A stretch of 64,000 nt of DNA from a virus. Lineage: Duplodnaviria; Heunggongvirae; Uroviricota; Caudoviricetes. The stretch lies in IMG/VR virus record IMGVR_UViG_3300021255_003438, positions 13,508 to 77,507 of that record; one strand, 5' to 3'. Under the pieces are notes generated by a model, which worked only from the letters and a program-made list of their open reading frames with translations, did no database searches and was not told where the DNA came from. Position numbers and translations under genes: made by a program. Below, in pieces: positions 7,425 to 60,262 of this stretch (position 1 is its first letter; every line of letters begins with the position of its first letter).

Positions 7425-8327
7425 CTACTTTGCCTCTACGTTGGTATAGTACCATTTCTCAAACTCGTTAAACTCTTCTTCAGAAAATTCTTTTTTCACA
7501 CGGTCAAGTTCGACATAATCACAATATTTAACTTTTACGATTACCCTATTGCCATTGCCACTGCAAAGAGGTACAACTGGACGTGCGACAATACCCTCTT
7601 CAATCATGGTTGGGTCAGCAGCCTTATCGTACTGAGTCGTAAAACCACTACGAACTTTGCGCTCAATTTCCTCAAGCGTCATTACACCTAGGAATGGAAC
7701 AGTCTCAAGCCCAAGACCCTTACAGAGAGAGTCACGAACATCCTTTGGAGTCCACCAGCCTTGCTGCTGGATGTCGAACACTACGAACCCATTTCCGTTC
7801 TGAATATAACGAGAGCCGCATTTCTGAATGCCAGTTCCGAAATACTCGCCATAGATGTAGATGGGGACTTCCTCAAGACGAACACCATACTGCCCTTCAC
7901 TTGTAGGAACTACAGTTAAAAGGCCAAGATGGTCTGACATATCCCAATACTCAACCTTGTTGGTGCTGCTATCCTTTACAGGGGCAAACCTAGCAGTCTC
8001 TTTTGGGAACATGGCCTTTAACTGAGGCTTGATACGCTCACCTATGGCTTGCAGCATTTCAAACTGACCATGCTGAGAATCAGCCTTATCCGTTTTACCA
8101 CCAACACGAATCTCACCAGTTGATGGGAAGTATGCAATCTTGGAGTTAGTTCCGTCAATCTTGGAATATGCCTCCCAAGGACAATTGAACAGATACTTAG
8201 CCTCTACATTGGAGAAGTTACCAATGATGATTTTGTTCTTGAACTTAAGCCAATCCTTGTTAGGACACTCCTTGCCATCGAAAATGTACCTTTTATATAG
8301 GGTATCAATCTTAGTATATGTATTCAT
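7425..8327 (-). CDS. ATP-dependent RNA ligase-like protein
   Basis: 300 aa. 'EAYSKIDGTNSKIAYF' carries the KxDG(T)N motif I of RNA/DNA ligases. TAG stop at 7425-7427. A host-type promoter lies just upstream at 8348-8379. Confidence 0.6.
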   Translation of the reverse strand: MNTYTKIDTLYKRYIFDGKECPNKDWLKFKNKIIIGNFSNVEAKYLFNCPWEAYSKIDGTNSKIAYFPSTGEIRVGGKTDKADSQHGQFEMLQAIGERIKPQLKAMFPKETARFAPVKDSSTNKVEYWDMSDHLGLLTVVPTSEGQYGVRLEEVPIYIYGEYFGTGIQKCGSRYIQNGNGFVVFDIQQQGWWTPKDVRDSLCKGLGLETVPFLGVMTLEEIERKVRSGFTTQYDKAADPTMIEEGIVARPVVPLCSGNGNRVIVKVKYCDYVELDRVKKEFSEEEFNEFEKWYYTNVEAK

Positions 8328-9983: not shown

Positions 9984-11381
9984 TCAAGTTGTTAGGCTCT
10001 TAATTTTATTCTCTACGACCTCAAAGCATTCATCTTTCGTAATATTTGGATTTTCGAAATAGGCATCTTTGACTGCCTCAAGCAGAACTCCAATTATCGG
10101 CCCACCTTTTAATTTAAATTCTGCCATAATGTCTTTTCCATTTATAGGCAGTTTGATGTTGGCCATCTTATCAATGTCCTCAAGCTCTTCTATTCTGTTA
10201 AGAAGGTCGTACACTTGTCGTTTTTTCTTGTCGTATGTGGAATGTAGGTTATTGGCGTTCATTAGGTCAACCACTGTTCCGATGTCGTTTCCGCATAGAT
10301 TCATGAACTTTCTGATTTTCTTATCTGGAGGTACTACGCCATCCGCATAGATTTTGAAAATCCTATGATATTCTATAGCAGTTTGTACGCTTTTAATGAT
10401 ATGGTTTGGAAACTTCATCATCTTCAAGTCTGCTGCTGCAATCTCTCCGCTAAAGTTATCAGGATTAACTGTTTTGTCCTTATCCGTTATAACCTTTCCA
10501 ACGTCATGGAATAATGCTGCCAATCTGCTTTCAAGGTATGGCTGCGTTTCGTCCAACACATTCATGGTATGGTCAAATGTTGTTACCATTGGGTTTTTAG
10601 ACTCATACGCAAAGTTAGTGTCGTATATATCAGGCATTACCTTGTTCAGCACGCCACAGTAATACATTTTCCTTATGCCAACGCTAGGCTTGCTGCATAA
10701 CAGAATTTTTGAAATTTCATCACTGATTCGTTCTTGTGATACGATTTCCAACCTATTTACGTTTTTAATCATACCAAGCCATGTGTCCTTATCAATACCC
10801 CATCCTAGACGAGTTGAGAAACGAATGACACGCATAATCCTCAATGGGTCATCATTGAACGTTATATCTGGGTCTGTTGGTGTTCGTATGATTTTAGCAC
10901 AAAGGTCAGAATATCCAGTGCCGTTAAAATCGCACAGTTTATCTTGGCTTATGTTGTAATATAAAGAATTGATTGTTAAATCTCTTCTTTTTGCGTCTTC
11001 TTCTATAGTTCCAAATACAGTCTCTGGATTCCTATTTTCTTTATGATACTGCTCCTTACGAGTCTGCACACATTCTATTTCAATGTCCTTAAACTCTTCG
11101 TGTTTATATAATTGGAATTTAGCAGTACCATAGGTCTCAAATATTACAGGATTTGTTGACGTAACAAAACATTGATGTTTCATCGTCATGTATGTGGAGA
11201 ATAGAAGTCCTCCATTTGGTATGTCAATTACCAAATCCAAATCCTTAATTGGAAGCCCTAAGATGCTGTCACGGACAGAGCCACCGACAACGTATACATG
11301 ATTGTCGAAGTGGGTGAACTTAATCGTTTCCCTTATTAGATTTAGAAGCTTTTTTATTTTCTCGTCCTTGAATATTTCCAT
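9984..11381 (-). CDS. cca: tRNA nucleotidyltransferase (CCA-adding enzyme) with HD domain
   Basis: 465 aa. 'VVGGSVRDSILGLPIKDLDLV' is the PolyA-polymerase head motif. 'LFHDVGK' is the HD motif. Confidence 0.8.
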   Translation of the reverse strand: MEIFKDEKIKKLLNLIRETIKFTHFDNHVYVVGGSVRDSILGLPIKDLDLVIDIPNGGLLFSTYMTMKHQCFVTSTNPVIFETYGTAKFQLYKHEEFKDIEIECVQTRKEQYHKENRNPETVFGTIEEDAKRRDLTINSLYYNISQDKLCDFNGTGYSDLCAKIIRTPTDPDITFNDDPLRIMRVIRFSTRLGWGIDKDTWLGMIKNVNRLEIVSQERISDEISKILLCSKPSVGIRKMYYCGVLNKVMPDIYDTNFAYESKNPMVTTFDHTMNVLDETQPYLESRLAALFHDVGKVITDKDKTVNPDNFSGEIAAADLKMMKFPNHIIKSVQTAIEYHRIFKIYADGVVPPDKKIRKFMNLCGNDIGTVVDLMNANNLHSTYDKKKRQVYDLLNRIEELEDIDKMANIKLPINGKDIMAEFKLKGGPIIGVLLEAVKDAYFENPNITKDECFEVVENKIKSLTT

Positions 11382-13000: not shown

Positions 13001-13771
13001 TCAACCATTATTGATTGAACATTCAAATATTGTGACTAATGCATTTGGGTCTAGGTTCTTTATAAACCTATCATAAAACGTACTGACCCATTCAGTTTCA
13101 CTACCTTCAAAGGTATCTACGTCAACCCACCCATCTTTGTCAACAAAGGCATAGTTCCAATAAGAGGTGCTGTAGTTTACATACTCTTCTTCTGATTTGA
13201 ATTTACGGAAATATGCTTCTTTGTCTTTCATGGCGTTATAGATGGCCTCTTCTTCCGTATTTGAAGGTGTTTTACCTTCCATAACCATTTCCCAAGCAGC
13301 TTTATAGACACTTGCGTTTGTGTGTGTCATTGATTCCCAATCCACTTCACTTACATGAGCAGAATAGGCTTCCATACCATTTTTTAATAGCAATGGCATA
13401 GAGAAATTCCTTCCTACCCTACAAGTGTTGAAATGGGCATTAGGATTTTCAGTTGACAAGGCATCACCATCTTCATTGTAATACATTCCATCTGTAAGCT
13501 GTCTGTAATACTCGAATGAAGATTGTTTTTTAAGCTCTTCTAAGCGTGTTTTAAGCGTTTCTTGTGTGGTTGGTGGTATTCCTATCTTATCAGCTTCATC
13601 AAGCAACTTCTCAAGCGTTTTAATAGATGCTTGCTGATACTTCTTAGCCTCAAGATATTTGTACTTGACATATGGTTCGACTTCATAGTCTGCGCCATAT
13701 TTCTCCATCATTTTCTGTGGCTCTTCTCCTACGGCCATTACAGAAAAAAATCTACTATTCGTCTGTGCCAT
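13001..13771 (-). CDS. Hypothetical protein
   Basis: 256 aa ORF. Confidence 0.45.
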   Translation of the reverse strand: MAQTNSRFFSVMAVGEEPQKMMEKYGADYEVEPYVKYKYLEAKKYQQASIKTLEKLLDEADKIGIPPTTQETLKTRLEELKKQSSFEYYRQLTDGMYYNEDGDALSTENPNAHFNTCRVGRNFSMPLLLKNGMEAYSAHVSEVDWESMTHTNASVYKAAWEMVMEGKTPSNTEEEAIYNAMKDKEAYFRKFKSEEEYVNYSTSYWNYAFVDKDGWVDVDTFEGSETEWVSTFYDRFIKNLDPNALVTIFECSINNG

Positions 13772-13774
13772 ACA

Positions 13775-15154
13775 TTATCTGTTTGGGGTCGTTTCACCTA
13801 GATAGTTCGGCATTTCAAAATGCATTCTAACTGGTTCATATTCAATATGAGGTACTTGAATGTCAGCAGTTATAGTTGCTGCGATTTGGTTTACACCGTT
13901 CAGTGCTGTGTTGTCAATGAAATCCCTATCCATTTGTTGGCCAATTCTGCCACCAAATATATCATCAAGGGAATCATCATCGTCATTTGCCGCACCAACA
14001 GCACCTACTCCTTCCATAGGTTCGCCACCTTCTACTTCTTCCTCACCTATAAGCTCACCGTTCTCTACCTCATCCTCTTCAATGTCAAAGGCGTTTGTCA
14101 TTTCACTTCCTATGCTTTCAATTTTTTTAATAAGCTCATCCGTTACTTCTTTATTGTAGGAAATTTTGGTTGAAGAATCAAAATTTACTCCAAAATTAGC
14201 AGACACGCAATCATTGAAAGAATATGTTTCTTGTTTGCCTAGAGATTGGAACAGAATATCATTCACGATATTGTTGTGATTTGTTTTATATCTTGTGTAA
14301 AACCAAGTATATGGTTTTTTGTTTTTGCTAATAATCTTTTCATACACCTTATCCATGAGTCTTCTTTCATTAAGAATGTCCTCAAGGAGTGACTTGTCTT
14401 TCAAGGCCCAAGAACTCTTATTGAAGGAGTTGGTGCCAGGAAATGCAAACGATGGGCATGTGCTAGACACTATGCAAGCGATGTCATAGTCTTCTAATAT
14501 ACTATCAATCGCTTTTTCGTTGTAAACAAAACTTTCATCTTTCCAATACAGTTTCCTACCGATTCTTTCTTGCTGCGCCTTTTTCCATTCCCTATCCAAT
14601 GAAATGCTTCCGCCCAAACATAGGCAGTTGAATGATTCAAACTTAACTATTGAATAATCAGGTACTGTCTTCACATTTGACAGATTGATTTCTTCATTGT
14701 TGAACAAACTAGGGTTGTCGCTGTTTCCTCTGACAAACAGCACATGACAATTGTTATCACTTAAAACTGTATTGAAATTGTTAAACTTAGAAATGTAGAA
14801 AGATGTGTCTTTACTACCCAAACCACAATTTCCGCATACGATTATAATAGTGTCATTTAAGAAACCACGCATACTTGACATCATCTTTTTAAGCGATGGC
14901 CTAGAATGGTCAAATGCATGAGCGTGCAAACCAAAAGGATTGACAAAAGGGTTATTAAGTTGTTCTCTAAGTCTTTCCTCTTCTTTCCTTTTAAGCCTTT
15001 CTTGTCTTTCAACTTCTTTTGGATGAATTTCTTTTGATACGTTCTGTGTATTAGGCAGTTTTCTTATAACGTTTTCGATGAATTTGTCAAGGCCGTTTTC
15101 TATACTGCCACAAAGCACACAGTTATTAATCGGTTCGTAATCATAAATTTTCAT
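13775..15154 (-). CDS. Hypothetical protein with degenerate calcineurin-like phosphoesterase motifs and an acidic C-terminus. Start adjusted.
   Basis: 'IIIVCGNCG' and 'FVRGNSDNP' weakly resemble metallophosphoesterase motifs GDxHG and GNH[DE]. The ORF track gives 13775..15352, but a promoter at 15197-15228 lies inside, so the Met at 15154 (MKIYDYEP) is the likely start. Confidence 0.35.
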   Translation of the reverse strand: MKIYDYEPINNCVLCGSIENGLDKFIENVIRKLPNTQNVSKEIHPKEVERQERLKRKEEERLREQLNNPFVNPFGLHAHAFDHSRPSLKKMMSSMRGFLNDTIIIVCGNCGLGSKDTSFYISKFNNFNTVLSDNNCHVLFVRGNSDNPSLFNNEEINLSNVKTVPDYSIVKFESFNCLCLGGSISLDREWKKAQQERIGRKLYWKDESFVYNEKAIDSILEDYDIACIVSSTCPSFAFPGTNSFNKSSWALKDKSLLEDILNERRLMDKVYEKIISKNKKPYTWFYTRYKTNHNNIVNDILFQSLGKQETYSFNDCVSANFGVNFDSSTKISYNKEVTDELIKKIESIGSEMTNAFDIEEDEVENGELIGEEEVEGGEPMEGVGAVGAANDDDDSLDDIFGGRIGQQMDRDFIDNTALNGVNQIAATITADIQVPHIEYEPVRMHFEMPNYLGETTPNR

Positions 15155-15196
15155 ACTTGTTAGGTTTTTTAAAAATTCGACATATATTTCTTTTTG

Positions 15197-15228
15197 CAAA
15201 GATATGTTTTTTTTTCTTAATTTCCAAA
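15197..15228 (-). promoter_or_regulatory. Bacteroidetes-type promoter
   Basis: caaagata at 15197-15204 and ccaaa at 15224-15228, spacer 19 nt. Confidence 0.5.
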
Positions 15229-15290
15229 ATTTGAACAATAAAAAAATGAGTGATACTTTCAAAATAGCACCACTCATTTCTGTATGTAGT

Positions 15291-17333
15291 TTACATTGCT
15301 CTAGTAAGCTCGTATTCCAATGAGTCCTCCGTCTCAACCTCAACGTTGTCATTGAAGATGTCTTTGTTAGGTTTGATATACTCCTTAAGGTCTATCTTAC
15401 AAGACTTTGCGAGTTTCTTGTCCTCTTCCCTAACCTTAAGGTCAGGTCTCTGACCAATAATCTTCAATGCCTCAAGGTTGTTATTCACGATGCACTGTCC
15501 AAGTGCAGCGCAACCAAAATCATTAACGTTGTTGACGTTGACGTTCTTCTTTGCTGCAAGAACCTTCACAACCCACACTTGGCTTGGGAATTCACATGCC
15601 ACGTTAATAGCCGTATCGTGGTTAAGGTCAAGCGTATTGAAGTCGAATGTCTTGCTAGAAAGAACTGACTTAATCATGGTAGTAAGCAGTTTGTTGTCCT
15701 CCTTAGAAGTGACAATTTCATCACTGCCGTGCAGATAAAGAAGTGACTCAAGAAGTGTCTCGCCAAAGCCGTCTTCAATCTTAGAGTTGAACTTAGGATG
15801 GTTCACAATAGCATCGAAAAGCTTATACATCTTGTTGTTGATGGCAGAGAACACAGGAACTCTTGTGTTAAATTCATAGTTAACGTCAATGTTGTTACCC
15901 TCTTTATTAATAAGCTCAATTGCACCAAGCTCATCGTTCTCGTCAATCAGCTTGTGTAGCAAGATGGATGGGTCAATAGCCTCACGGTTCAGATATGCGT
16001 CACTTGAAATGCCAATCTTTGACAGATAGCCTTGCTTGGTCAAGTCTGCGCCGAATGTTTCAGTCGCACGAACCAAAGATAGTGCACCATATTGGTCTTT
16101 GCGGTACTGCATTGCAATCATGGACATGTCATCGTTGTAGTTGAGGTTGAAGTCCATAAAGAGATACAACTTATTATTGGTATCCACAGAGAAGTTTCCA
16201 CTCTTGATGAAACTGTGACCCACAAGCTTGTCAAATCCATTCTTGTTAAGGATGTTGATAATCAAACGGCCATCACCCTCGTATGCAATTGCATAGTTTG
16301 ATGGTTCTTTCTTTACCATTTCAAGAATGGATGCAATAGTCCAAGTGAAACCAATGTTCCTAGGCAGACGCATGAACTTGCTGGCCTTAACGCCAATCTT
16401 TGCAAGAAGCTTGTGGATGTTAAGAGTTTCACTACCTTGCTTGAAATCTTCCATCATGTCCTTGTTGTCACAAGTCTGAGCAATGATAATTCCACTACCA
16501 CCCTCAACTGTGAATCCAACGTGTGCGAAACAGTCAGTTTCCTTACGGCTGAAATCAAACAAGAAGTATTGGTCACGCTTGCCATCGTAACGTGTCACAT
16601 AATCTGAAAAGAAATGTGCCTCACGAGTAATGCACCACTGTGTACGGCCGCTGCCACAAAGCTTGTGGCTAGAATCGAATGACGGAACGCGAATAATAAC
16701 AACAGACCCTTCGTTGTACACGATTTCACAATCGCTAGCATTATGCTCAAGGTAACAAAGCATATCTTCCTTATCCCATTCATATGTCTCTTCAAGACAG
16801 CTATTGATTGCTGCTAGCAAAGAGTCAGCAGTTTTCAGTGCAGAGCAAGTGCTATAGAACTTGTTCTTGCGACCCATAGGCTTTTTATTGAAGAGTTTGA
16901 ATACATTGTACCATTTCTTAATCGTGGCATCGCTGTAAGCTTCGAGAGCCGTATATTCCTTATCAAGGAGTGCCTTGGTAAGAATCTTCCTTTGGTCAGT
17001 GTTAAAGTGCGAAATGATGTTCTTGATGAATGCCAATCTGTCAAGTCCTTCCATTTCCTTTTTCAACTGAGCAATACCTGATTTATTAGAGTAGGACACA
17101 ATGTTCTTTTTCGCAAGCTTACTGATGAGGTTCTGATTTTCAACAATCCAATCGTGAATCTGCTGTAAGTCCTCAAAAGTTAATGACTGCGAGAAAATCA
17201 TCTTAACAGCCCAATTTTGATAGTTGGTCTGTCCATCGAACATTTCTACTACGCTAATAAACAATTTGTTAGTCTCTGGATTGATTTGATACTTATCAAT
17301 CAAGGGCTGCATCTGTTTTTTGTTGTAAGTCAT
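15291..17333 (-). CDS. Large ankyrin-repeat protein with an N-terminal domain paralogous to 17655..20174
   Basis: 680 aa. The C-terminus has ANK-like repeats (G.TLLESLL..., HDTAINVACEF...NDFGCAALGQC). 'TQWCITREAHFFSDYV...QYFLFDFS...HVGFT' aligns with 'TNWCISKNKSYWNNYI...QYMIFDFS...IVGFT' in the next gene. Confidence 0.5.
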   Translation of the reverse strand: MTYNKKQMQPLIDKYQINPETNKLFISVVEMFDGQTNYQNWAVKMIFSQSLTFEDLQQIHDWIVENQNLISKLAKKNIVSYSNKSGIAQLKKEMEGLDRLAFIKNIISHFNTDQRKILTKALLDKEYTALEAYSDATIKKWYNVFKLFNKKPMGRKNKFYSTCSALKTADSLLAAINSCLEETYEWDKEDMLCYLEHNASDCEIVYNEGSVVIIRVPSFDSSHKLCGSGRTQWCITREAHFFSDYVTRYDGKRDQYFLFDFSRKETDCFAHVGFTVEGGSGIIIAQTCDNKDMMEDFKQGSETLNIHKLLAKIGVKASKFMRLPRNIGFTWTIASILEMVKKEPSNYAIAYEGDGRLIINILNKNGFDKLVGHSFIKSGNFSVDTNNKLYLFMDFNLNYNDDMSMIAMQYRKDQYGALSLVRATETFGADLTKQGYLSKIGISSDAYLNREAIDPSILLHKLIDENDELGAIELINKEGNNIDVNYEFNTRVPVFSAINNKMYKLFDAIVNHPKFNSKIEDGFGETLLESLLYLHGSDEIVTSKEDNKLLTTMIKSVLSSKTFDFNTLDLNHDTAINVACEFPSQVWVVKVLAAKKNVNVNNVNDFGCAALGQCIVNNNLEALKIIGQRPDLKVREEDKKLAKSCKIDLKEYIKPNKDIFNDNVEVETEDSLEYELTRAM

Positions 17334-27095: not shown

Positions 27096-27298
27096 ATTTT
27101 TCATCAAAAAAGGTATCAAATACACTTATTATTGATATAAATCATTATATAAAAAATGAGCACCCATCGCTGGATGCTCTTGAAAAATCTTATCGCAACA
27201 AGAAAGATTTTAAAAAACAAGGAACAATAATGGTCGGATTCTAACCGACACAAGATTGATTTGCAATCAATTGAGTTAACTTGCTGTATGTTCCTTTG

Positions 27299-31568: not shown

Positions 31569-32390
31569 TTATTTTATTGGATACATCATTGTTGTACCTC
31601 CACCGACAACTACGTCAACGTTAGCATCCTTCTTCTTTTCAATGACTTCCCACTTACGTAACTCAATATACTGAGGCACAGTAAGATTCAATGCTGTCAT
31701 ATATGCTTTATCAGCAATAGCCCTCTGACGTTCAGCCTTTTCACGAGCCAACTGTACCTCTGCTTCACGCTCTTGCGTCTGCTTTGCTTGCACAGCCCTA
31801 GCAGTTTTGTTCATTTCAGCCAACTGTTCCTCATTAGGTGTAGCCTTACCAATCGTCACTTGGCGAATGGTCACTGGAAATTCCTTGTCCTTTGACAGCT
31901 CTGCCACATAATCTTGCATCTGTTTCAATACCCTATCGTCAATCTCATTCAGAATCGCACGATTGGACATAAGGTCAAACGGACTATGCTGTGAAATATG
32001 GTCTCGCACTAGGTTACAGTAGTAGTTATAAATGTTGGTATTAAACCAATCCTCGCCATAATTCTGCAATAGTACTGGAGACTTTCCCTTCTGAATCTGA
32101 GTGATAATCACGGTATGGAAATCCAACGGTGTATTGTCATCAGAGAACAAATCGTTCATATCCACTTGATGCTTCACTGGAACAATCTTGAACGTAACCG
32201 CATCAGTTGTCCACACACACCAAGTAAGACCACTCTCCACTGGAGTCATGTCAATACCACCATGACCAAAGAACCAAGGCTTGTAAATCAGCACAGCCTC
32301 CTCGTCTGCGTTAGGTTTAACGCCATGACATGAACATGTCATCACTAGCGTAAGAAACGCCATCAAACTAAGAACTAAATATTTCTTCAT
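31569..32390 (-). CDS. Lipoprotein (signal peptide + Cys)
   Basis: 273 aa. N-terminus 'MKKYLVLSLMAFLTLVMTCSC'. Confidence 0.45.
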   Translation of the reverse strand: MKKYLVLSLMAFLTLVMTCSCHGVKPNADEEAVLIYKPWFFGHGGIDMTPVESGLTWCVWTTDAVTFKIVPVKHQVDMNDLFSDDNTPLDFHTVIITQIQKGKSPVLLQNYGEDWFNTNIYNYYCNLVRDHISQHSPFDLMSNRAILNEIDDRVLKQMQDYVAELSKDKEFPVTIRQVTIGKATPNEEQLAEMNKTARAVQAKQTQEREAEVQLAREKAERQRAIADKAYMTALNLTVPQYIELRKWEVIEKKKDANVDVVVGGGTTMMYPIK

Positions 32391-35286: not shown

Positions 35287-35398
35287 TCCATATATTTTTT
35301 TTTTATTAAACTTTTTGCAAATATATAAAAAAAAATTGGAAGATACAAATATATCTCCCAACTTTAATTTTGTTTAACAATTTGCCTATATGGATGTG

Positions 35399-35472
35399 TG
35401 AGCGTAGTGGGATTCGAACCCACGAACAACGGTTTTAGAGACCGCCCCAATAGACCACTCTAGCATACGCCC
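35399..35472 (-). tRNA. Candidate suppressor tRNA (anticodon CTA, would read UAG)
   Basis: Acceptor GGGCGTA/TACGCTC. T-arm GTGGG-TTCGAAT-CCCAC. Anticodon stem (G)CGGT/ACCG(T) with loop CTCTAAA (U33, CUA, A37). The D-arm is irregular. Own promoter at 35481-35511. Confidence 0.45.
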
Positions 35473-36650: not shown

Positions 36651-37076
36651 GATTGAGCTAATATTGAGTTATATTAAAACTTACGGATATACTTTATCAG
36701 GAATCTGGCTTTCTCTGCTGAAGACTTATTTTTACCCATCCACTCATAGGAACTTCACAGAGTGCTTCACACACCATTAGGTAGCATCGAATGAGATAGT
36801 ATTCCATACGCTAGTGGAACTATATAGACATTGTTACATACCTCAATCTACATTCTTCTTAGTGTGTACCCTTGCGACAAATGTACCCACGCTTGTATAT
36901 CTACGCCTCTATCGTAAGTTTTGTGTTGAAGGGAACTTTTTTTTTCGGTATTCGTTTCAAGCAAATTCCATATAGTCATTGCTGTAAGTTCCCGCTATTG
37001 GTTAAGGAATTGGAAACGGTAGAGCCACACTACGAAACTCTCTACCTACTCATCGTAGCATTATCCAAAACCTTAG

Positions 37077-38954: not shown

Positions 38955-39067
38955 TATGTTAAAAATAAGGAAACGTTTTTGTTTTTTCAAGAAACATTTA
39001 CATACTTAAGCTAGTTGCTGTGCGTTTCCACTATTCTATGAATTTTATTATCTTTTTTCCAACTGCG

Positions 39068-39690: not shown

Positions 39691-40391
39691 GTTAAGTGGA
39701 GCTAGAGTGAAATAAATCTCATTAAACTCCGTACTTTTCCACATTTGTAAATATTTATATTAAAATCAATATTACTATGTCAAAAAAATATAACTTTAAT
39801 CGTAAACTAGGTACAGTTAAATGTGATAATTGCGGCAAAGAATTCCAAAAGCCCCAATCAGAAATTAACCGTAACGCTAAACTCAATAGAAATAACTACT
39901 GCTGTAGAGAATGTTCTGCTGAAGGGGTTAGAAAAACTAGATTGAATTTACCTTATAAACCAGCATCTAAAAAAATGTTAGAACATTTAAAAGATATTTG
40001 TGGAAATCATCGTGATGATTACACTCCATTCAGATATTCTTTAAGATGCGCTAAAAGACGTTTTAAAGACGTTAATGTAACTTTGGAAGACTTAAAAGAA
40101 ATATGGGAAAAACAAAATGGTGTTTGCCCATACACTGGTTTTAAACTAATTCTTCCTGAAAACTCTAATGTGAATAAAATCGATTTTTTTCATAGAGCAT
40201 CTTTAGATAGAATAGATTCTTCACTTGGTTACATTAAAGGTAACATTCAATTTATTTCTACACCTATTAACTTGATGAAACAAACACAAAGTGATGCAAG
40301 CGTTAAACAATTCCTAAAAGAAATTTCAAGTTATACATCAAAACTTTTATAAGTGTCTGATTTTCAAGTAGTTAAGTGGAGCTAGAGTGAA
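39691..40391 (+). mobile_element. Free-standing HNH homing endonuclease insertion flanked by a 21-bp direct repeat derived from a tRNA 3' end
   Basis: Identical gttaagtggagctagagtgaa at 39691-39711 and 40371-40391. The right copy continues into an intact T-arm (GAGTG-TTCGATT-CACTC). The only sizeable plus-strand gene in the window. Confidence 0.55.
39777..40352 (+). CDS. HNH homing endonuclease
   Basis: 191 aa. 'FFHRASLDRIDSSLGYIKGNIQFIS...N' matches the HNH_3 motif. N-terminal Cys pairs (CDNCGK...CCREC). Confidence 0.65.
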   Translation: MSKKYNFNRKLGTVKCDNCGKEFQKPQSEINRNAKLNRNNYCCRECSAEGVRKTRLNLPYKPASKKMLEHLKDICGNHRDDYTPFRYSLRCAKRRFKDVNVTLEDLKEIWEKQNGVCPYTGFKLILPENSNVNKIDFFHRASLDRIDSSLGYIKGNIQFISTPINLMKQTQSDASVKQFLKEISSYTSKLL

Positions 40392-40762
40392 TCGAACACT
40401 CGTCCATACTACCATCCCATAAGAGATTATACAAGCTTTAAAATTGGAAAGTTGACATTGCTGTCCTCACCGCCACCTCATTTTGCGAAAACGAGGAAAA
40501 CTAGGGGGATGACTAGAGTCATCAGTCCACCATTCGGTTTTAAGAAACCGACAAAAAGTTGCTAGGATGTTCTGTTCCTAAGAGCCTAGCCTCTCGGCTT
40601 ACATTACGCAGCTATTGCGTACTCGTAAGCAGGAGTATCAATATACTCGCCGTTTATTTTTTTCTTGCTATTTCTAGTGTATGCCCACTGCTTGTCTCTT
40701 ACCAAATGCATAGCTGTCTATACCATTGTAGCCCCATTGTGTCAAAGAACTCTTTCTTGTTG

Positions 40763-45370: not shown

Positions 45371-45442
45371 TGCCCCCAGAGAATTTTGCAATCTCGACCC
45401 CATGTTTAAGAGACACGTGCTCTACTTCTGAGCTATGGAAGC
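45371..45442 (-). tRNA. tRNA-Lys (anticodon CTT)
   Basis: Acceptor GCTTCCA/TGGGGGC (two G-U pairs). D-arm GCTC-AGAAGTA-GAGC. Anticodon stem CGTGT/ACATG with loop CTCTTAA. T-loop-like TTGCAAAAT. Confidence 0.5.
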
Positions 45443-45452
45443 ATATGAACTG

Positions 45453-45527
45453 TACGCCTGGTGGGATTCGAACCCACGTAGTCACAGATTAAAAGTCTGG
45501 TGCATAAAGCCACTCTGCCACAAGCGC
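45453..45527 (-). tRNA. tRNA-Lys-like (anticodon TTT)
   Basis: Acceptor GCGCTTG/CAGGCGT (two G-U pairs). Anticodon stem (C)CAGA/TCTG(T) with loop CTTTTAA. T-arm GTGGG-TTCGAAT-CCCAC. Confidence 0.45.
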
Positions 45528-49975: not shown

Positions 49976-50047
49976 CAGTGACGATGGGATTCGAACCCAC
50001 GACTTTTGGTTAGACAGACCAACGCTCTACCACTGAACTACGCCACT
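49976..50047 (-). tRNA. tRNA-Asp (anticodon GTC)
   Basis: Acceptor AGTGGCG/CGTCACT. D-arm GTTC-AGTGGTA-GAGC. Anticodon stem TTGGT/ACCAA with loop CTGTCTA. T-loop TTCGAAT. Confidence 0.65.
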
Positions 50048-50065
50048 ATTTGAACTAATTTTTTG

Positions 50066-50138
50066 AGCCGTGTGAGGGATTCGAACCCACGACATTCACA
50101 TTACAAGGGTGACGCTCTACCAACTGAGCTAACACGGC
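50066..50138 (-). tRNA. tRNA-Thr (anticodon TGT)
   Basis: Acceptor GCCGTGT/ACACGGC is perfect. D-arm GCTC-AGTTGGTA-GAGC. Anticodon loop CTTGTAA. T-loop TTCGAAT. Confidence 0.7.
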
Positions 50139-52040: not shown

Positions 52041-52459
52041 ATAAAAAGGAAACGTAGGTTTTCGAGCTTGCTTATTCTGCTATTACTATGAGGGTGGTAT
52101 TTCAAGATTGACTCCACACATCCTAGCGAATATGCTTCAACGTCTCCCACCTATCCTACACTCATATGCCATTGCTACTGTTATTCACAAGAGTAACACG
52201 TTATGCAGCCCTAGCCTTATCTTTTGGAATTGTAACGAGTTAAGATTTCATATGCTGTACGTTTCCGATATATTGTGTCAATTGCGACAAAAGAAAAAAG
52301 GAACGACCAATTTTATGTCTTGGCTCGACATTCGCCCCGAAGAGCATAGGTAAGTGCCTCGCAATGATGATTTAACGCTTCTCTTACCTTCGTCTAGTCT
52401 GAATTAAAAATGTGTTCTTATAAATTTATTTTAATCAAACTGCTGTACGTTCCTACTTG

Positions 52460-52533
52460 TACATCCGCTGGGACTCGAACCCAGAACCTACGGCTTAGAA
52501 GGCCGTTGCTCTAATCCATTGAGCTACGGATGC
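52460..52533 (-). tRNA. tRNA-Arg (anticodon TCT)
   Basis: Acceptor GCATCCG/CGGATGT. D-arm GCTC-AATGGATTA-GAGC. Anticodon stem ACGGC/GCCGT with loop CTTCTAA. T-arm CTGGG-TTCGAGT-CCCAG. Confidence 0.7.
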
Positions 52534-54843: not shown

Positions 54844-54957
54844 AGCCGTGTGCTGGATTCGAACCAACGTTTGTACTTAAACACCCCTTGTGCATATGCT
54901 GGTACCTACTGGGGTCGCCTCGTTTGCGCTGTGCTGACCGTCTTACACTAACACGGC
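54844..54957 (-). ncRNA. Long tRNA-like gene (~114 nt) sharing the acceptor stem with tRNA-Thr(TGT)
   Basis: Acceptor GCCGTGT/ACACGGC. T-arm GTTGG-TTCGAAT-CCAGC. About 85 nt internal with GGTACC/GCATATGC palindromes. Confidence 0.35.
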
Positions 54958-55231
54958 AATTTCTTGAGCAGTGTAGGAGATTCGAACTCCCTCCTTGACC
55001 TTGGCAAGGTTATATGCTACCATTAACACCAACACTGCAAAGTCAGTTTTTATAACCGTAAAACTGAAAAACTTCCTCCACCTACGATGAGGCAATAGTT
55101 TGAATCCCTTCAGGGACTACTGACGTTACGTTGAGCCTCAAATCTCTTTTGATAGTCTTTTTTAACGTGCAGATAATCTAGCAAGTAGTATGTACACGAT
55201 ATTTTAAGGAAACGTTTGTTGTTTATTTTTT

Positions 55232-55320
55232 AGTGCTCTAACCAACTGAGCTACCACGCTATGTTATTATGATTTAGTAGCGTGGACAGGATTCGAACCT
55301 GTGACCCCTAGCTTGAAATG
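55232..55320 (-). ncRNA. Permuted/split tRNA-like unit A: 3' half then 17-nt linker then 5' half
   Basis: On the sense strand: ...GGGTC-ACAGG-TTCGAAT-CCTGT-CCACGCT-A, then CTAAATCATAATAACAT, then AGCGTGG-TA-GCTC-AGTTGGTTA-GAGC-A, then an A-rich tail. The acceptor strands are perfectly complementary (7/7). Confidence 0.45.
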
Positions 55321-55358
55321 CTTTTTAAACGATGTACTTTGCTGTACGTTTCCACTTG

Positions 55359-57074: not shown

Positions 57075-57100
57075 AACATTACCTTAAAAAACGGATACTT

Positions 57101-57165
57101 TTGTTTAATATACCAATACCCACGAATGGGTGCTTAAACCATTTGTTTAGGTTTAGCTTGGATTC
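57101..57165 (-). ncRNA. Permuted/split tRNA-like unit C (3' half then 8-nt linker then 5' half)
   Basis: On the sense strand: CTTGG-TTCGAAT-CCAAG-CTAAACC-T, then AAACAAAT, then GGTTTAA-GC-ACCC-ATTCGTG-GGT. Acceptor strands pair 6/7. Confidence 0.4.
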
Positions 57166-57359
57166 GAACCAAGAAATTGTAACAAAATTACATTGCTGTA
57201 AGTATCCTTGCGTTAATTATATCAACTATCACGTTTGGACTGCTACTAGAGACCTTACCCCCATCCATACCTCTCTAGGAAGATAACCTAGCACATTCTT
57301 TCAATTTCCATGACCCCACAGTTTATTGGACTTACGTGGCACGATTATTTGATATATAG

Positions 57360-57432: not shown

Positions 57433-57460
57433 ATTTTTCGGAAACATTTTTTATTTTTTA

Positions 57461-57530
57461 CATTGCTCTACCAACTGAGCTACAACGAGCTATTGCCCAT
57501 TGAAGAGACTCGAACTCTTGACCTACGGAT
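57461..57530 (-). ncRNA. Permuted/split tRNA-like unit B (3' half then 5-nt linker then 5' half)
   Basis: On the sense strand: AAGAG-TTCGAGT-CTCTT-CAATGGG-C, then AATAG, then CTCGTTG-TA-GCTC-AGTTGGTA-GAGC-A, then an A-rich tail. Acceptor strands pair 7/7 with two G-U. Confidence 0.4.
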
Positions 57531-57732
57531 TACAAATCATAATAAAAACGTTTGCATTGCTGTATGTTTCCTTTTATGTTTTATGAAACTGTTTTGGCTC
57601 TATGCTTTCTGTTCTATCACGTTCCAATACGTAATCCCTAAGAAGGGTTAGGCTTAACGAATTATTCTTTTACATTTCATTCGCCCTCTTGCTACGATAG
57701 CAAGACTGTGATTACTCACCGTTCAGTCTCAT

Positions 57733-57810
57733 TGAGCAAGCCTATGGAATCGAACCATTCTTTCCCTCGGATGAGGGCTGTGCTAGCCATTACACCAAAG
57801 CCGCATTTTA
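57733..57810 (-). ncRNA. tRNA-like element (T-arm AATGG-TTCGATT-CCATA). Anticodon region is a tetraloop hairpin.
   Basis: T-arm present. CCCTC-ATCC-GAGGG hairpin. Poor acceptor pairing. Confidence 0.25.
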
Positions 57811-58090: not shown

Positions 58091-58242
58091 ATGTTTAAAA
58101 CTAGGTGTTGCAACATTAGAAATGGGCTTACAATATTCGACATTCGGCTCAACCGCTCTAGATTTCGGTATCATAGCCTCCTCCTCGTAGCCTCTTACTG
58201 CCATTCTAAACCTAGTTTTATGAAAACGGAATCTATAAACTT

Positions 58243-58313
58243 TCGGTAGGTTGAGACTCGAACTCAAATCTCTTAGTAAAAGCCAAGGCTCTAACCCATT
58301 GAGCTACCCATCG
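58243..58313 (-). ncRNA. tRNA-like gene (canonical D- and T-arms, unresolved anticodon stem)
   Basis: D-arm GCTC-AATGGGTTA-GAGC. T-arm TTGAG-TTCGAGT-CTCAA. Acceptor pairs 6/7. Confidence 0.4.
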
Positions 58314-58340
58314 CGTTACCTTATGCTGTTAGATTCCTTT

Positions 58341-58421
58341 GTCGGAAGGGTAGGATTCAAACCTACGAACTCTGCTATATCAACACGGCTAGTTTGCAGA
58401 ACTGCTGCCGTTTCCTTCCGA
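58341..58421 (-). ncRNA. tRNA-like gene (perfect acceptor TCGGAAG/CTTCCGA, T-arm GTAGG-TTTGAAT-CCTAC), internal arms unresolved
   Basis: 81 nt. GCAG-TT-CTGC hairpin inside. Confidence 0.35.
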
Positions 58422-60174: not shown

Positions 60175-60262
60175 AAGTAAAGGGAACATTTTTAACCGTA
60201 TTCTTAAAACCCAAATTTAATTACTTGTTAATTCAATAATACTTGCTGTAAGTTCCCACTTG

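Follow-up and report, generated by a model that had tools for sequence, protein, structure and literature searches.

Three framed tRNA-like units in a phage tRNA array

The 64,000-nt stretch of DNA analyzed here (the window; positions 13,508 to 77,507 of the Caudoviricetes record IMGVR_UViG_3300021255_003438 in IMG/VR) is one long minus-strand tRNA array, in which ARAGORN called 32 tRNA genes and a transfer-messenger RNA (tmRNA) and to which Rfam added a few more tRNAs. Within this array lie three units, U1, U2, and U3 (Table 1), that carry the 3' half of a tRNA-like sequence ahead of its 5' half. An initial annotation had described this order at 57101-57165 and 57461-57530, and the predicted folds, a covariance model built with the window left out, and orthologues bear it out at both sites, on the minus strand. 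Those coordinates hold for the cores, whereas the full units are longer.

Read along the minus strand, each unit begins and ends with the two strands of an 8-bp terminal stem, which are exactly complementary and covary between the units (GGAAACGU and ACGUUUCC in U1), and an invariant ACAGCAA (nt 9-15) directly follows the 5' strand. The tRNA-like module consists of a T arm, the 7-nt 3' strand of an acceptor stem, a loop of 6 to 18 nt, the complementary 7-nt acceptor 5' strand, and a D arm, and it is followed by an A-rich linker and the closing 8-mer. Alignment of the three units, suggested earlier as a check for a shared linker or trailer, did reveal one: the leader GGAWACNU plus ACAGCAAWG is conserved, and the trailer is the complementary 8-mer, usually with a U-rich tail. 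Minimum free energy (MFE) folding of all three units recovered the terminal stem, the T arm, the closed acceptor hairpin, and the D hairpin (z-scores in Table 1). The acceptor strands are complementary at 7/7 positions in U1 and U3 (two of the U3 pairs being G-U, with UA standing between the acceptor 5' strand and the D arm) and at 6/7 positions in U2, which has one A-C mismatch and a 9-nt loop. The D-like hairpin of U2 is noncanonical, lacking G18G19, and GC stands at positions 8-9.

Between ACAGCAA and the T arm, each unit has a 2-bp mini-hairpin with a 7-nt loop, and the next 3 nt pair with the 3 nt that follow the D arm (in U3, CGU at 57525-57527 with AUG at 57461-57463, completing a 5-bp "anticodon stem" with a break at position 29/30). 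The mini-hairpin and this 3-nt pairing across the D arm allow U1 to U3 to be drawn as complete cloverleaves, in which a loop closes the acceptor end and the chain termini exit the anticodon stem at position 29/30. Comparison with orthologues revealed compensatory changes that keep the helices: the U3 T stem AAGAG/CUCUU is GUUGG/CCAGC in the related phage contig L015, and the U1 acceptor CCACGCU/AGCGUGG is CCGCCAC/GUGGCGG in locus L047.

Table 1. Framed RNAs, their parts, and other annotated features of the window (positions count from the first letter of the window)
Feature	Position	Strand	Basis
U1, framed tRNA-like RNA, complete, 146 nt	55208..55353	-	R2 88.3 bits; Rfam YrlA 39.8 bits; MFE z = -3.9
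U2, framed degenerate tRNA-like RNA, complete, 115 nt	57093..57207	-	R2 42.6 bits; Rfam YrlA no match; MFE z = -3.2; orthologue L047:5552-5661
U2 terminal stem 5' strand GGAUACUU, partner AAGUAUCC at 57093-57100	57200..57207	-	drawn structure
U2 ACAGCAA motif	57193..57199	-	sequence
U2 T arm CUUGG-UUCGAAU-CCAAG	57157..57173	-	MFE fold
U2 acceptor-like hairpin CUAAACC-UAAACAAAU-GGUUUAA	57134..57156	-	MFE fold
U2 D-like hairpin ACCC-AUUCGU-GGGU	57118..57131	-	MFE fold
U2 terminal stem 3' strand AAGUAUCC, then GUUUUUU	57093..57100	-	sequence
U3, framed tRNA-like RNA, complete, 132 nt	57440..57571	-	R2 87.5 bits; Rfam YrlA 34.1 bits, full length; MFE z = -2.4
U3 terminal stem 5' strand GGAAACAU, partner AUGUUUCC at 57440-57447	57564..57571	-	helix 1, covarying in family
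U3 ACAGCAA motif, proposed protein-binding handle	57557..57563	-	motif also kept in loci retrieved via the protein, without RNA pattern
U3 pseudo-anticodon mini-hairpin GA-UUUGUAA-UC	57528..57538	-	helices 2 and 3 of family alignment; loop consensus
U3 T arm AAGAG-UUCGAGU-CUCUU	57503..57519	-	MFE fold, drawn structure, YrlA alignment
U3 acceptor-like hairpin CAAUGGG-CAAUAG-CUCGUUG, 7-bp stem and 6-nt loop	57483..57502	-	MFE fold
U3 D arm GCUC-AGUUGGUA-GAGC, canonical	57465..57480	-	MFE fold, YrlA alignment
U3 terminal stem 3' strand AUGUUUCC	57440..57447	-	drawn structure
Nonpermuted odd tRNA-like RNA in ACAGCA frame (GGAAUCUA...UAGAUUCC)	58228..58337	-	ARAGORN "tRNA-???" 58243-58313
23S rRNA L1-stalk-region mimic in frame GGAAACGU ACAGCAU...ACGUUUCC UUUUU	52048..52266	-	Rfam LSU_rRNA_bacteria
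Short framed RNA GGGAACUU ACAGCAAG...UGUUCCC, without tRNA-like module	60182..60257	-	frame
Short framed RNA GGAAACG CACAGCAA...CGUUUCC	38969..39029	-	frame
Short framed RNA GGGAACUU ACAGCAAUG...AAGUUCCC	36931..36993	-	frame
Short framed RNA, anticodon-arm-like hairpin UUGA-CUUGUAA-UCAA	36360..36425	-	frame
Framed RNA with only anticodon-like and T-arm-like hairpins	27219..27296	-	frame, model scan
One-piece tmRNA	40376-40735	-	ARAGORN
PF09414 RNA ligases (two)	210-896, 7425-8327	-	Pfam
CCA-adding enzyme	9984-11381	-	Pfam
525-aa protein, weak metallophosphoesterase match	13775-15352	-	Pfam
Band-7/SPFH protein	31569-32390	-	Pfam

A recurrent RNA gene type in phages

The units belong to a real, recurrent RNA gene type that is widespread in phages, although the general Y-RNA principle behind it is already known. 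We define the family by a terminal stem of 7 to 8 bp with ACAGCAA directly after its 5' strand and an A-rich linker ahead of its 3' strand. Pattern scans retrieved at least 114 viral loci from IMG/VR and 47 loci from GTDB species genomes. The framed architecture, which shows strong covariation, was found at upward of 100 viral and some 30 bacterial loci, and it recurs in more than 150 loci. Among 95 distinct viral units that were parsed with a lenient terminal-stem filter, the T stem is fully paired in 92 and the acceptor has 7/7 pairs in 67, and the sequence of the terminal stem is free to vary, with compensatory changes. In an alignment of 36 sequences with a hand-drawn structure, 92.5% of the cells are paired, versus 63% in shuffles, and the covariation score is 0.718, versus 0.19 in shuffles and at most 0.137 in slid-partner controls, with support for all six helices. 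RNAalifold found compensatory changes at 16 of 21 pairs. The earlier suggestion of a recurrent gene type, as opposed to a single duplicated segment, is thus upheld, since each unit has its own acceptor, T, and terminal stems, and these covary.

A covariance model (R2) from which all window and window-clade sequences were left out, and in which RNAs found via the protein described below were included, recovered U1 (E = 8e-19), U3 (E = 1e-18), and U2 (E = 7e-8) over model positions 1-117. Neighboring ordinary tRNA genes, which also read T arm, spacer, and D arm, give 22 to 35 bits, without acceptor complementarity. Weak model matches at 52419-52520, 45396-45511, 50003-50126, and similar sites were rejected as adjacent ordinary tRNAs, and the 71 matches of a first pattern scan (GGAAACNTACAGCAAWG) were mostly due to chance, with about 8 real ones among them.

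The pseudo-anticodon loop has the consensus [C/A]-U-N-N-(U)-A-A (columns 37-43 of alignment A2): 32 of 35 sequences have U at position 2 and 30 to 31 of 36 have A at positions 6 and 7, while the "anticodon" is free to vary. With its U33-like and U36-A37-A38-like residues, this loop resembles what we take to be the loops of ANN-decoding, t6A-modified tRNAs and of anticodon-nuclease targets. Many family members cap the acceptor stem with a GAAA or UUCG tetraloop, and others have no anticodon hairpin or no D arm.

ARAGORN made no tRNA or tmRNA call at the sites of U1 to U3, and the eight annotated phage records that we inspected carry no RNA feature at the sites of the framed RNAs. Neither Rfam 15 nor the literature open to search, coverage of which was incomplete, yielded a description of the ACAGCAA family, so that a prior description is possible.

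Linkage to a Ro60-like protein

The RNA family is tightly linked in genomes to a protein with DUF2828 and vWA domains, which is encoded on the same strand wherever this was checked. When open reading frames (ORFs) around the units were clustered, the dominant neighbor was a protein of 450 to 580 aa, on the same strand in 28/28 clustered viral loci and often 80 to 400 nt from the unit. It matches Pfam DUF2828 (PF11443) and the vWA-like DUF7788 (PF25043), and a hidden Markov model (HMM) of the protein found it in 44 of the 114 listed viral loci and 27 of the 47 genome loci. As to other recurrent neighbors, an RNaseH_like PF04308 protein lies on the same strand in 10 loci, and homing endonucleases of the GIY-YIG and HNH types were also observed, as was a PD-(D/E)XK nuclease (examples are L173 268-783, L144 352-1089, and L076 3742-4167). 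A 31%-identical homologue of the window ORF at 13775-15352 also occurs near units in four loci, which are one near-identical lineage and are therefore uninformative.

The predicted fold of the DUF2828+vWA protein is that of Ro60/TROVE. Its profile matched Ro60 best in the PDB (E = 0.006), and the top 13 Foldseek PDB matches of its AlphaFold2 model (pLDDT 85.6) are all Ro60/TROVE structures, with E values of 3e-9 to 2.5e-5, best TM-scores of 0.55 to 0.62, and about 500 to 555 aligned columns, i.e., over the full length; the best structural match is 9KOP, the Ro60 of Thermus phage phiLo. At the sequence level, the protein did not reach the TROVE model and matched NCBIfam Rsr only at E = 0.009. 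The family is very large, with 7,991 proteins at E <= 1e-10 among 8,000 candidates scored and matches in 710 cultured phage records, some of them annotated as "Ro-like RNA binding protein." We found no literature linking DUF2828 to Y RNAs.

In a protein-anchored test, nine phages were retrieved via the Ro60-like protein, with no RNA pattern used. Framed RNAs lay beside the gene in Enterococcus phage EFDG1 (91 and 71 bits) and Sinorhizobium phage phiM7 (77 bits), and in Mycobacterium phage Moostard the gene, which is annotated "Ro-like RNA binding protein," is followed at a distance of 105 nt by a framed RNA of 83 bits that is itself flanked by two short ones. Beside the gene, E. coli phage JH2 has a framed RNA (52 bits) within its tRNA array, and Campylobacter phage CP30A has two (41.5 and 33.7 bits), in addition to a pair of short ones immediately upstream of it. 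In Fusobacterium phage FNU2, the gene is preceded by a short framed RNA, 49 nt upstream. Handle variants ACAGCGA and ACAGCAC occur in these protein-anchored loci. Three tandem Y-like RNAs by one DUF2828 gene were seen in each of a Thermoguttaceae metagenome-assembled genome (L205 751-1198), EFDG1 (L241 2360-2793), and Moostard (L235 3983-4239).

No TROVE or DUF2828 protein was found within the 64-kb window by Pfam searches with 40 ORFs, PHROGs searches with 10 ORFs, and PDB sequence searches, and hhalign comparison of two unannotated ORFs of 489 and 525 aa with TROVE/Ro60 gave no match. The 201-kb metagenomic contig NODE_38 of ENA ERZ12302814 (locus L236) carries the window: over 12,683 nt, L236 agrees with the window's reverse complement at all but one position. 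It encodes at L236 1394-3067 a 557-aa DUF2828+DUF7788 protein (PF11443+PF25043; HMM E = 2.6e-100). This gene corresponds to window-equivalent positions 69721-71394 on the minus strand, 5.7 kb past the end of the window, and lies on the same strand upstream of U3 by 12.1 kb, of U2 by 12.5 kb, and of U1 by 14.4 kb. It heads a block that continues with genes for TyrRS, NAD synthase, SSB, and TelA, and then with the tRNA array.

Relation to Y RNAs and alternative explanations

The best Rfam match of U1 and U3 over the full model length is YrlA (RF02553), below its gathering score of 69 bits; U2 gave no YrlA match. YrlA is a tRNA-mimicking Y RNA bound by bacterial Ro60, in which T- and D-arm stem-loops flank a closed acceptor-like hairpin (PMC4201824). 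As a 3' half followed by a 5' half, with a loop-closed acceptor, is what defines YrlA, the permuted look of the units is a known architecture. Shared features (PMC4201824; bioRxiv 10.1101/312249) are an end-pairing stem and the succession of variable (V) region, T arm, closed acceptor hairpin, and D arm; T and D sequences that in our units are near-identical to the YrlA consensus; the possibility of several RNAs per locus, some without a tRNA-like part (YrlB-like); and the same-strand link to a Ro60-fold protein in an RNA-repair context. The YrlA-type domain, with T and D arms around a closed acceptor, is present in all three units, in U2 with a noncanonical D hairpin only. Binding by Ro60/Rsr in vivo and modification by the tRNA enzymes TruB and DusA are further hallmarks of YrlA. 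The family differs from YrlA in that ACAGCAA, directly after the 8-bp stem, replaces GNCGAAN0-1G, the proposed Ro60 contact near the 5' end of YrlA (PMC4201824); in that most members add the mini-hairpin completing an anticodon arm with a YU-NNN-AA loop, which is absent from the YrlA model; and in that the acceptor stem usually has all seven base pairs. In addition, the partner is a DUF2828+DUF7788 paralogue instead of a PF05731 TROVE orthologue.

A second phage precedent is Thermus phage phiLo, which encodes both a Ro60 and the Y-like RNAs Yrl1 and Yrl2 (PMC12135203; PDB 9KOP, 9L5Y), and whose authors propose hijacking of host RNA enzymes (PMC12135203). The phiLo system thus also combines a phage-encoded Ro60-fold protein with Y-like RNAs, but its Yrls were found by a CGAA motif in a stem-bulge-stem, with no tRNA-like domain reported (PMC12135203).

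We consider it likely, with good though not full confidence, that U1, U2, and U3 are Y-RNA-like small-RNA genes that carry a tRNA mimic and act as partners of a Ro60-like protein. The ACAGCAA RNAs are probably a sister family of the YrlA Y RNAs, with a distinct handle, a Ro60 paralogue as the probable partner, and an added anticodon-arm mimic.

Several observations weigh against this interpretation. YrlA is typically encoded no more than about 4 kb from Ro60, in the same orientation (PMC4201824), a distance exceeded by the 12 to 14 kb that separate the window units, inside their tRNA array, from the gene of a protein that is not a TROVE orthologue; and the flanks of the closest relatives (L015, L047, L048, and L062), which are short, showed no Ro60-like gene. 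In the protein-anchored test, two of the nine phages (Stenotrophomonas DLP_6 and Aeromonas Ah1) had no clear framed RNA within 3 kb of the gene, and Listeria A511 gave weak candidates only. In the set that was collected, the invariance of TACAGCAA, GTTCGANTC, and GTAGCT was imposed by the scan patterns. U2, lacking the elbow-forming G18G19, may not adopt a tRNA-like L shape. Finally, all family members tested, including those directly beside the partner gene, score 31 to 50 bits with the YrlA model (34 to 50 bits for the RNAs of the protein-anchored phages), and a regular expression for GNCGAAN0-1G matched neither U1 to U3 nor the first 40 nt of any of the 95 family units. Given these last two observations, the case for binding of ACAGCAA by the protein rests on their co-occurrence.

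The subthreshold YrlA scores and the substitution of ACAGCAA for the Ro60 contact also weigh against the view that the family is merely a divergent YrlA whose partner is an orthologue of canonical Ro60 (Rsr). In favor of this view, no other Rfam family matches better than YrlA, the T and D arms are almost identical to the YrlA consensus, and phage Y RNAs beside Ro60 genes are known (PMC4201824; PMC12135203). With a partner that falls below the TROVE model and barely matches Rsr, and with a pseudo-anticodon hairpin that lies outside the YrlA model, we regard this view as quite unlikely.

Permuted tRNA genes, known from Cyanidioschyzon merolae and some archaea, likewise have the 3' half upstream of the 5' half, acceptor ends joined by a short linker, and leader-trailer pairing; their processing, which passes through a circular intermediate, relies on a bulge-helix-bulge, a splicing endonuclease, and a ligase and yields essential decoding tRNAs. 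The initial annotation implied such circularly permuted genes, and U1, U2, and U3 would then be functional tRNA-Glu(UUC), tRNA-Lys(UUU), and tRNA-Thr(UGU) genes, in which the leader-trailer helix directs cleavage, an Rnl2-type phage ligase seals position 29/30, and RNase P, 3' trimming, and the CCA enzyme open the acceptor loop. The 3'-half-first order and complementary acceptor strands, the drawable cloverleaf with its 5-bp anticodon stem and 7-nt loop (U33, A37-like), and the two PF09414 RNA ligases and CCA-adding enzyme encoded in the window are all in keeping with this route, as are the 7-bp acceptor stems, the main RNase P determinant, and the cutting by RNase P and attachment of CCA that M. 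smegmatis YrlA, which has such a stem, undergoes in vivo (PMC4201824). The "anticodon" loop, however, drifts among close U1 orthologues (AUUUCAA, AUUCCAA, AUUACAA, AAUCCAA, and ACGCUAU; i.e., UUC, UCC, UAC, and others) on an unchanged body, many acceptors are tetraloop capped, and some members have no anticodon hairpin or D arm. The most conserved part is a non-tRNA handle, which also frames an rRNA mimic and short hairpins (Table 1); the order of parts is the YrlA layout, the family is linked to the Ro60-like gene, and canonical tRNA genes of all three specificities are already present in the window. Inspection of the folds revealed no bulge-helix-bulge in U1 to U3, where at least 7 nt (ACAGCAA...) bulge asymmetrically next to the 8-bp helix in place of a 3-nt bulge, a 4-bp helix, and a second 3-nt bulge; the host is bacterial, and bacteria are not known to have a splicing endonuclease. 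Bulge-helix-bulge-type and group-I-type processing were rejected, as the flanks are too short and the bulge-helix-bulge is absent; Rfam placed no ribozyme or intron in the 54- to 59-kb region at E <= 10. On balance, permuted tRNA genes are an improbable explanation of the units.

Two-piece tmRNA (RF01851, RF04321) shares with the units the series T arm, acceptor 3' strand, linker, and acceptor 5' strand, but the units have a D arm and neither a tag reading frame nor pseudoknots, their Rfam matches reach 15.6 to 19 bits versus gathering scores of 47 and 70, and a normal one-piece tmRNA is already encoded in the window.

The frame might also be a processing or termination cassette (an RNase III or RNase E cut or a terminator) that excises structured RNAs from the transcript of the tRNA array, the inserts being decayed tRNA genes without function. 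Such a cassette would suit the position of the units 3 to 5 nt downstream of tRNAs (U1 after a tRNA-Gly), the U-rich stretch after most frames, including that of U2, and the heterogeneous cargo. The single-stranded ACAGCAA is nevertheless kept across actinobacterial, proteobacterial, firmicute, and Bacteroidota-type phages, and the frame is specifically tied to one protein family. As all helices of the tRNA-like module are maintained by compensatory changes, the module is not decaying, and we hold the cassette to be very improbable. Lastly, a chance juxtaposition of neighboring or recombined tRNA halves in a dense array, to which the 22- to 35-bit matches of adjacent tRNA genes might point, is refuted by the family covariation and the leave-out model scores of 43 to 88 bits, together with the within-unit acceptor complementarity, the compensatory changes in orthologues, and the recurrence, and is scarcely credible.

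Other framed RNAs and features of the window

In the window, the ACAGCAA frame also encloses cargo of other kinds. The L1-stalk-region mimic has an LSU_rRNA_bacteria match at 52087-52166 (63.1 bits versus a gathering score of 50; model positions 2131-2210) and an orthologue at L048:345-564. The nonpermuted RNA at 58228-58337 has a 6-nt "anticodon loop," for which ARAGORN gives the anticodon "tt," and an equivalent in L047 at 7891-7962. Five short framed RNAs without a full tRNA-like module resemble YrlB, and phages Moostard, CP30A, and FNU2 have similar short framed RNAs around their Ro-like gene.

Several further elements on the minus strand have tRNA-like parts. One at 58343-58420 combines a perfect 7-bp acceptor (CGGAAGG/CCUUCCG) and a T arm (GUAGG-UUUGAAU-CCUAC) with an aberrant 5' half; it received no ARAGORN call and contributes to weak YrlA and R1 matches. 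Another at 54844-54957, called by neither ARAGORN nor Rfam, has an acceptor (GCCGUGU/ACACGGC), D and T arms, and an insertion of about 40 to 50 nt in the anticodon/variable region, and may be an intron-containing or long-arm tRNA. At 57735-57805, a tRNA-like 5' part (GCGGCUUUGGUGUAAUGGCUAGCAC...) is joined to a T arm (AUGG-UUCGAUU-CCAU) with noncomplementary ends, and about 160 nt of structured-looking noncoding sequence lie between this element and U3 (down to 57572). The tRNA at 35398-35472 has the anticodon CUA (ARAGORN "tRNA-Pyl") and, as a probable amber suppressor, is a hint that the phage recodes TAG.

The two RNA ligases, the CCA-adding enzyme, the 525-aa protein, and the Band-7 protein (Table 1) make up a gene set for RNA repair, which, with the tmRNA and the tRNA genes, suits the Y-RNA interpretation. 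A NUDIX enzyme and an NAPRTase are also encoded in or around the window. Promoter-like TAnnTTTG motifs, which we take to be of the kind found in Bacteroidota, suggest a Bacteroidota host. In a near-identity search of the 54- to 60-kb region against cultured phages, only a tRNA-Met matched.

Possible functions and implications

By analogy with the Y RNA stem bound by Ro60, the terminal stem and the single-stranded ACAGCAA may form a handle that binds the Ro60-like protein and opens into a copy of a whole tRNA, with a variable loop, a T arm, a loop-closed 7-bp acceptor, a D arm, and a 7-nt anticodon-like loop on a 5-bp "anticodon stem." We infer that this tRNA-shaped module would tether the protein to factors that recognize tRNA or would act as a decoy for them, the candidates being nucleases (RNase P, exonucleases, and host anticodon nucleases), modification enzymes, RNA ligases, and the CCA-adding enzyme. 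A ribonucleoprotein (RNP) of this kind could serve in tRNA quality control, tRNA repair, or counter-defense during infection, with the phage making a battery of such RNAs with different cargo, presumably cotranscribed with the tRNA array.

A bolder, modular scheme of "mimic display," which we think unlikely but worth stating, is that one Ro60-like protein and the common ACAGCAA handle present interchangeable cargo (full tRNA mimics with their anticodon-like loops, the 23S L1-stalk mimic, and bare anticodon-arm hairpins) that would bring repair enzymes to their substrates or act as decoys for host nucleases that target tRNA or rRNA. In its sharper form, members with a 7-bp acceptor would be opened by RNase P and given CCA by the phage enzyme, yielding two-piece, aminoacylatable tRNA-like molecules tethered to the Ro60-like protein.

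The identification of U1 to U3 as Y-RNA-like genes would explain a class of "back-to-front tRNA" sequences in phage tRNA arrays and provide a candidate RNA partner for the very large and largely uncharacterized DUF2828+vWA family; if it is true, Ro60/Y-RNA biology would be far wider in phages than the canonical TROVE set suggests. The conserved ACAGCAA handle offers a defined sequence for mutation, and the RNA and protein pair is carried by cultured phages, including Felix O1-like E. coli phages, EFDG1, cluster L mycobacteriophages, and Campylobacter phages. These carriers make it possible to ask what a phage may gain from tRNA-shaped RNPs, be it tRNA repair, quality control, or counter-defense.

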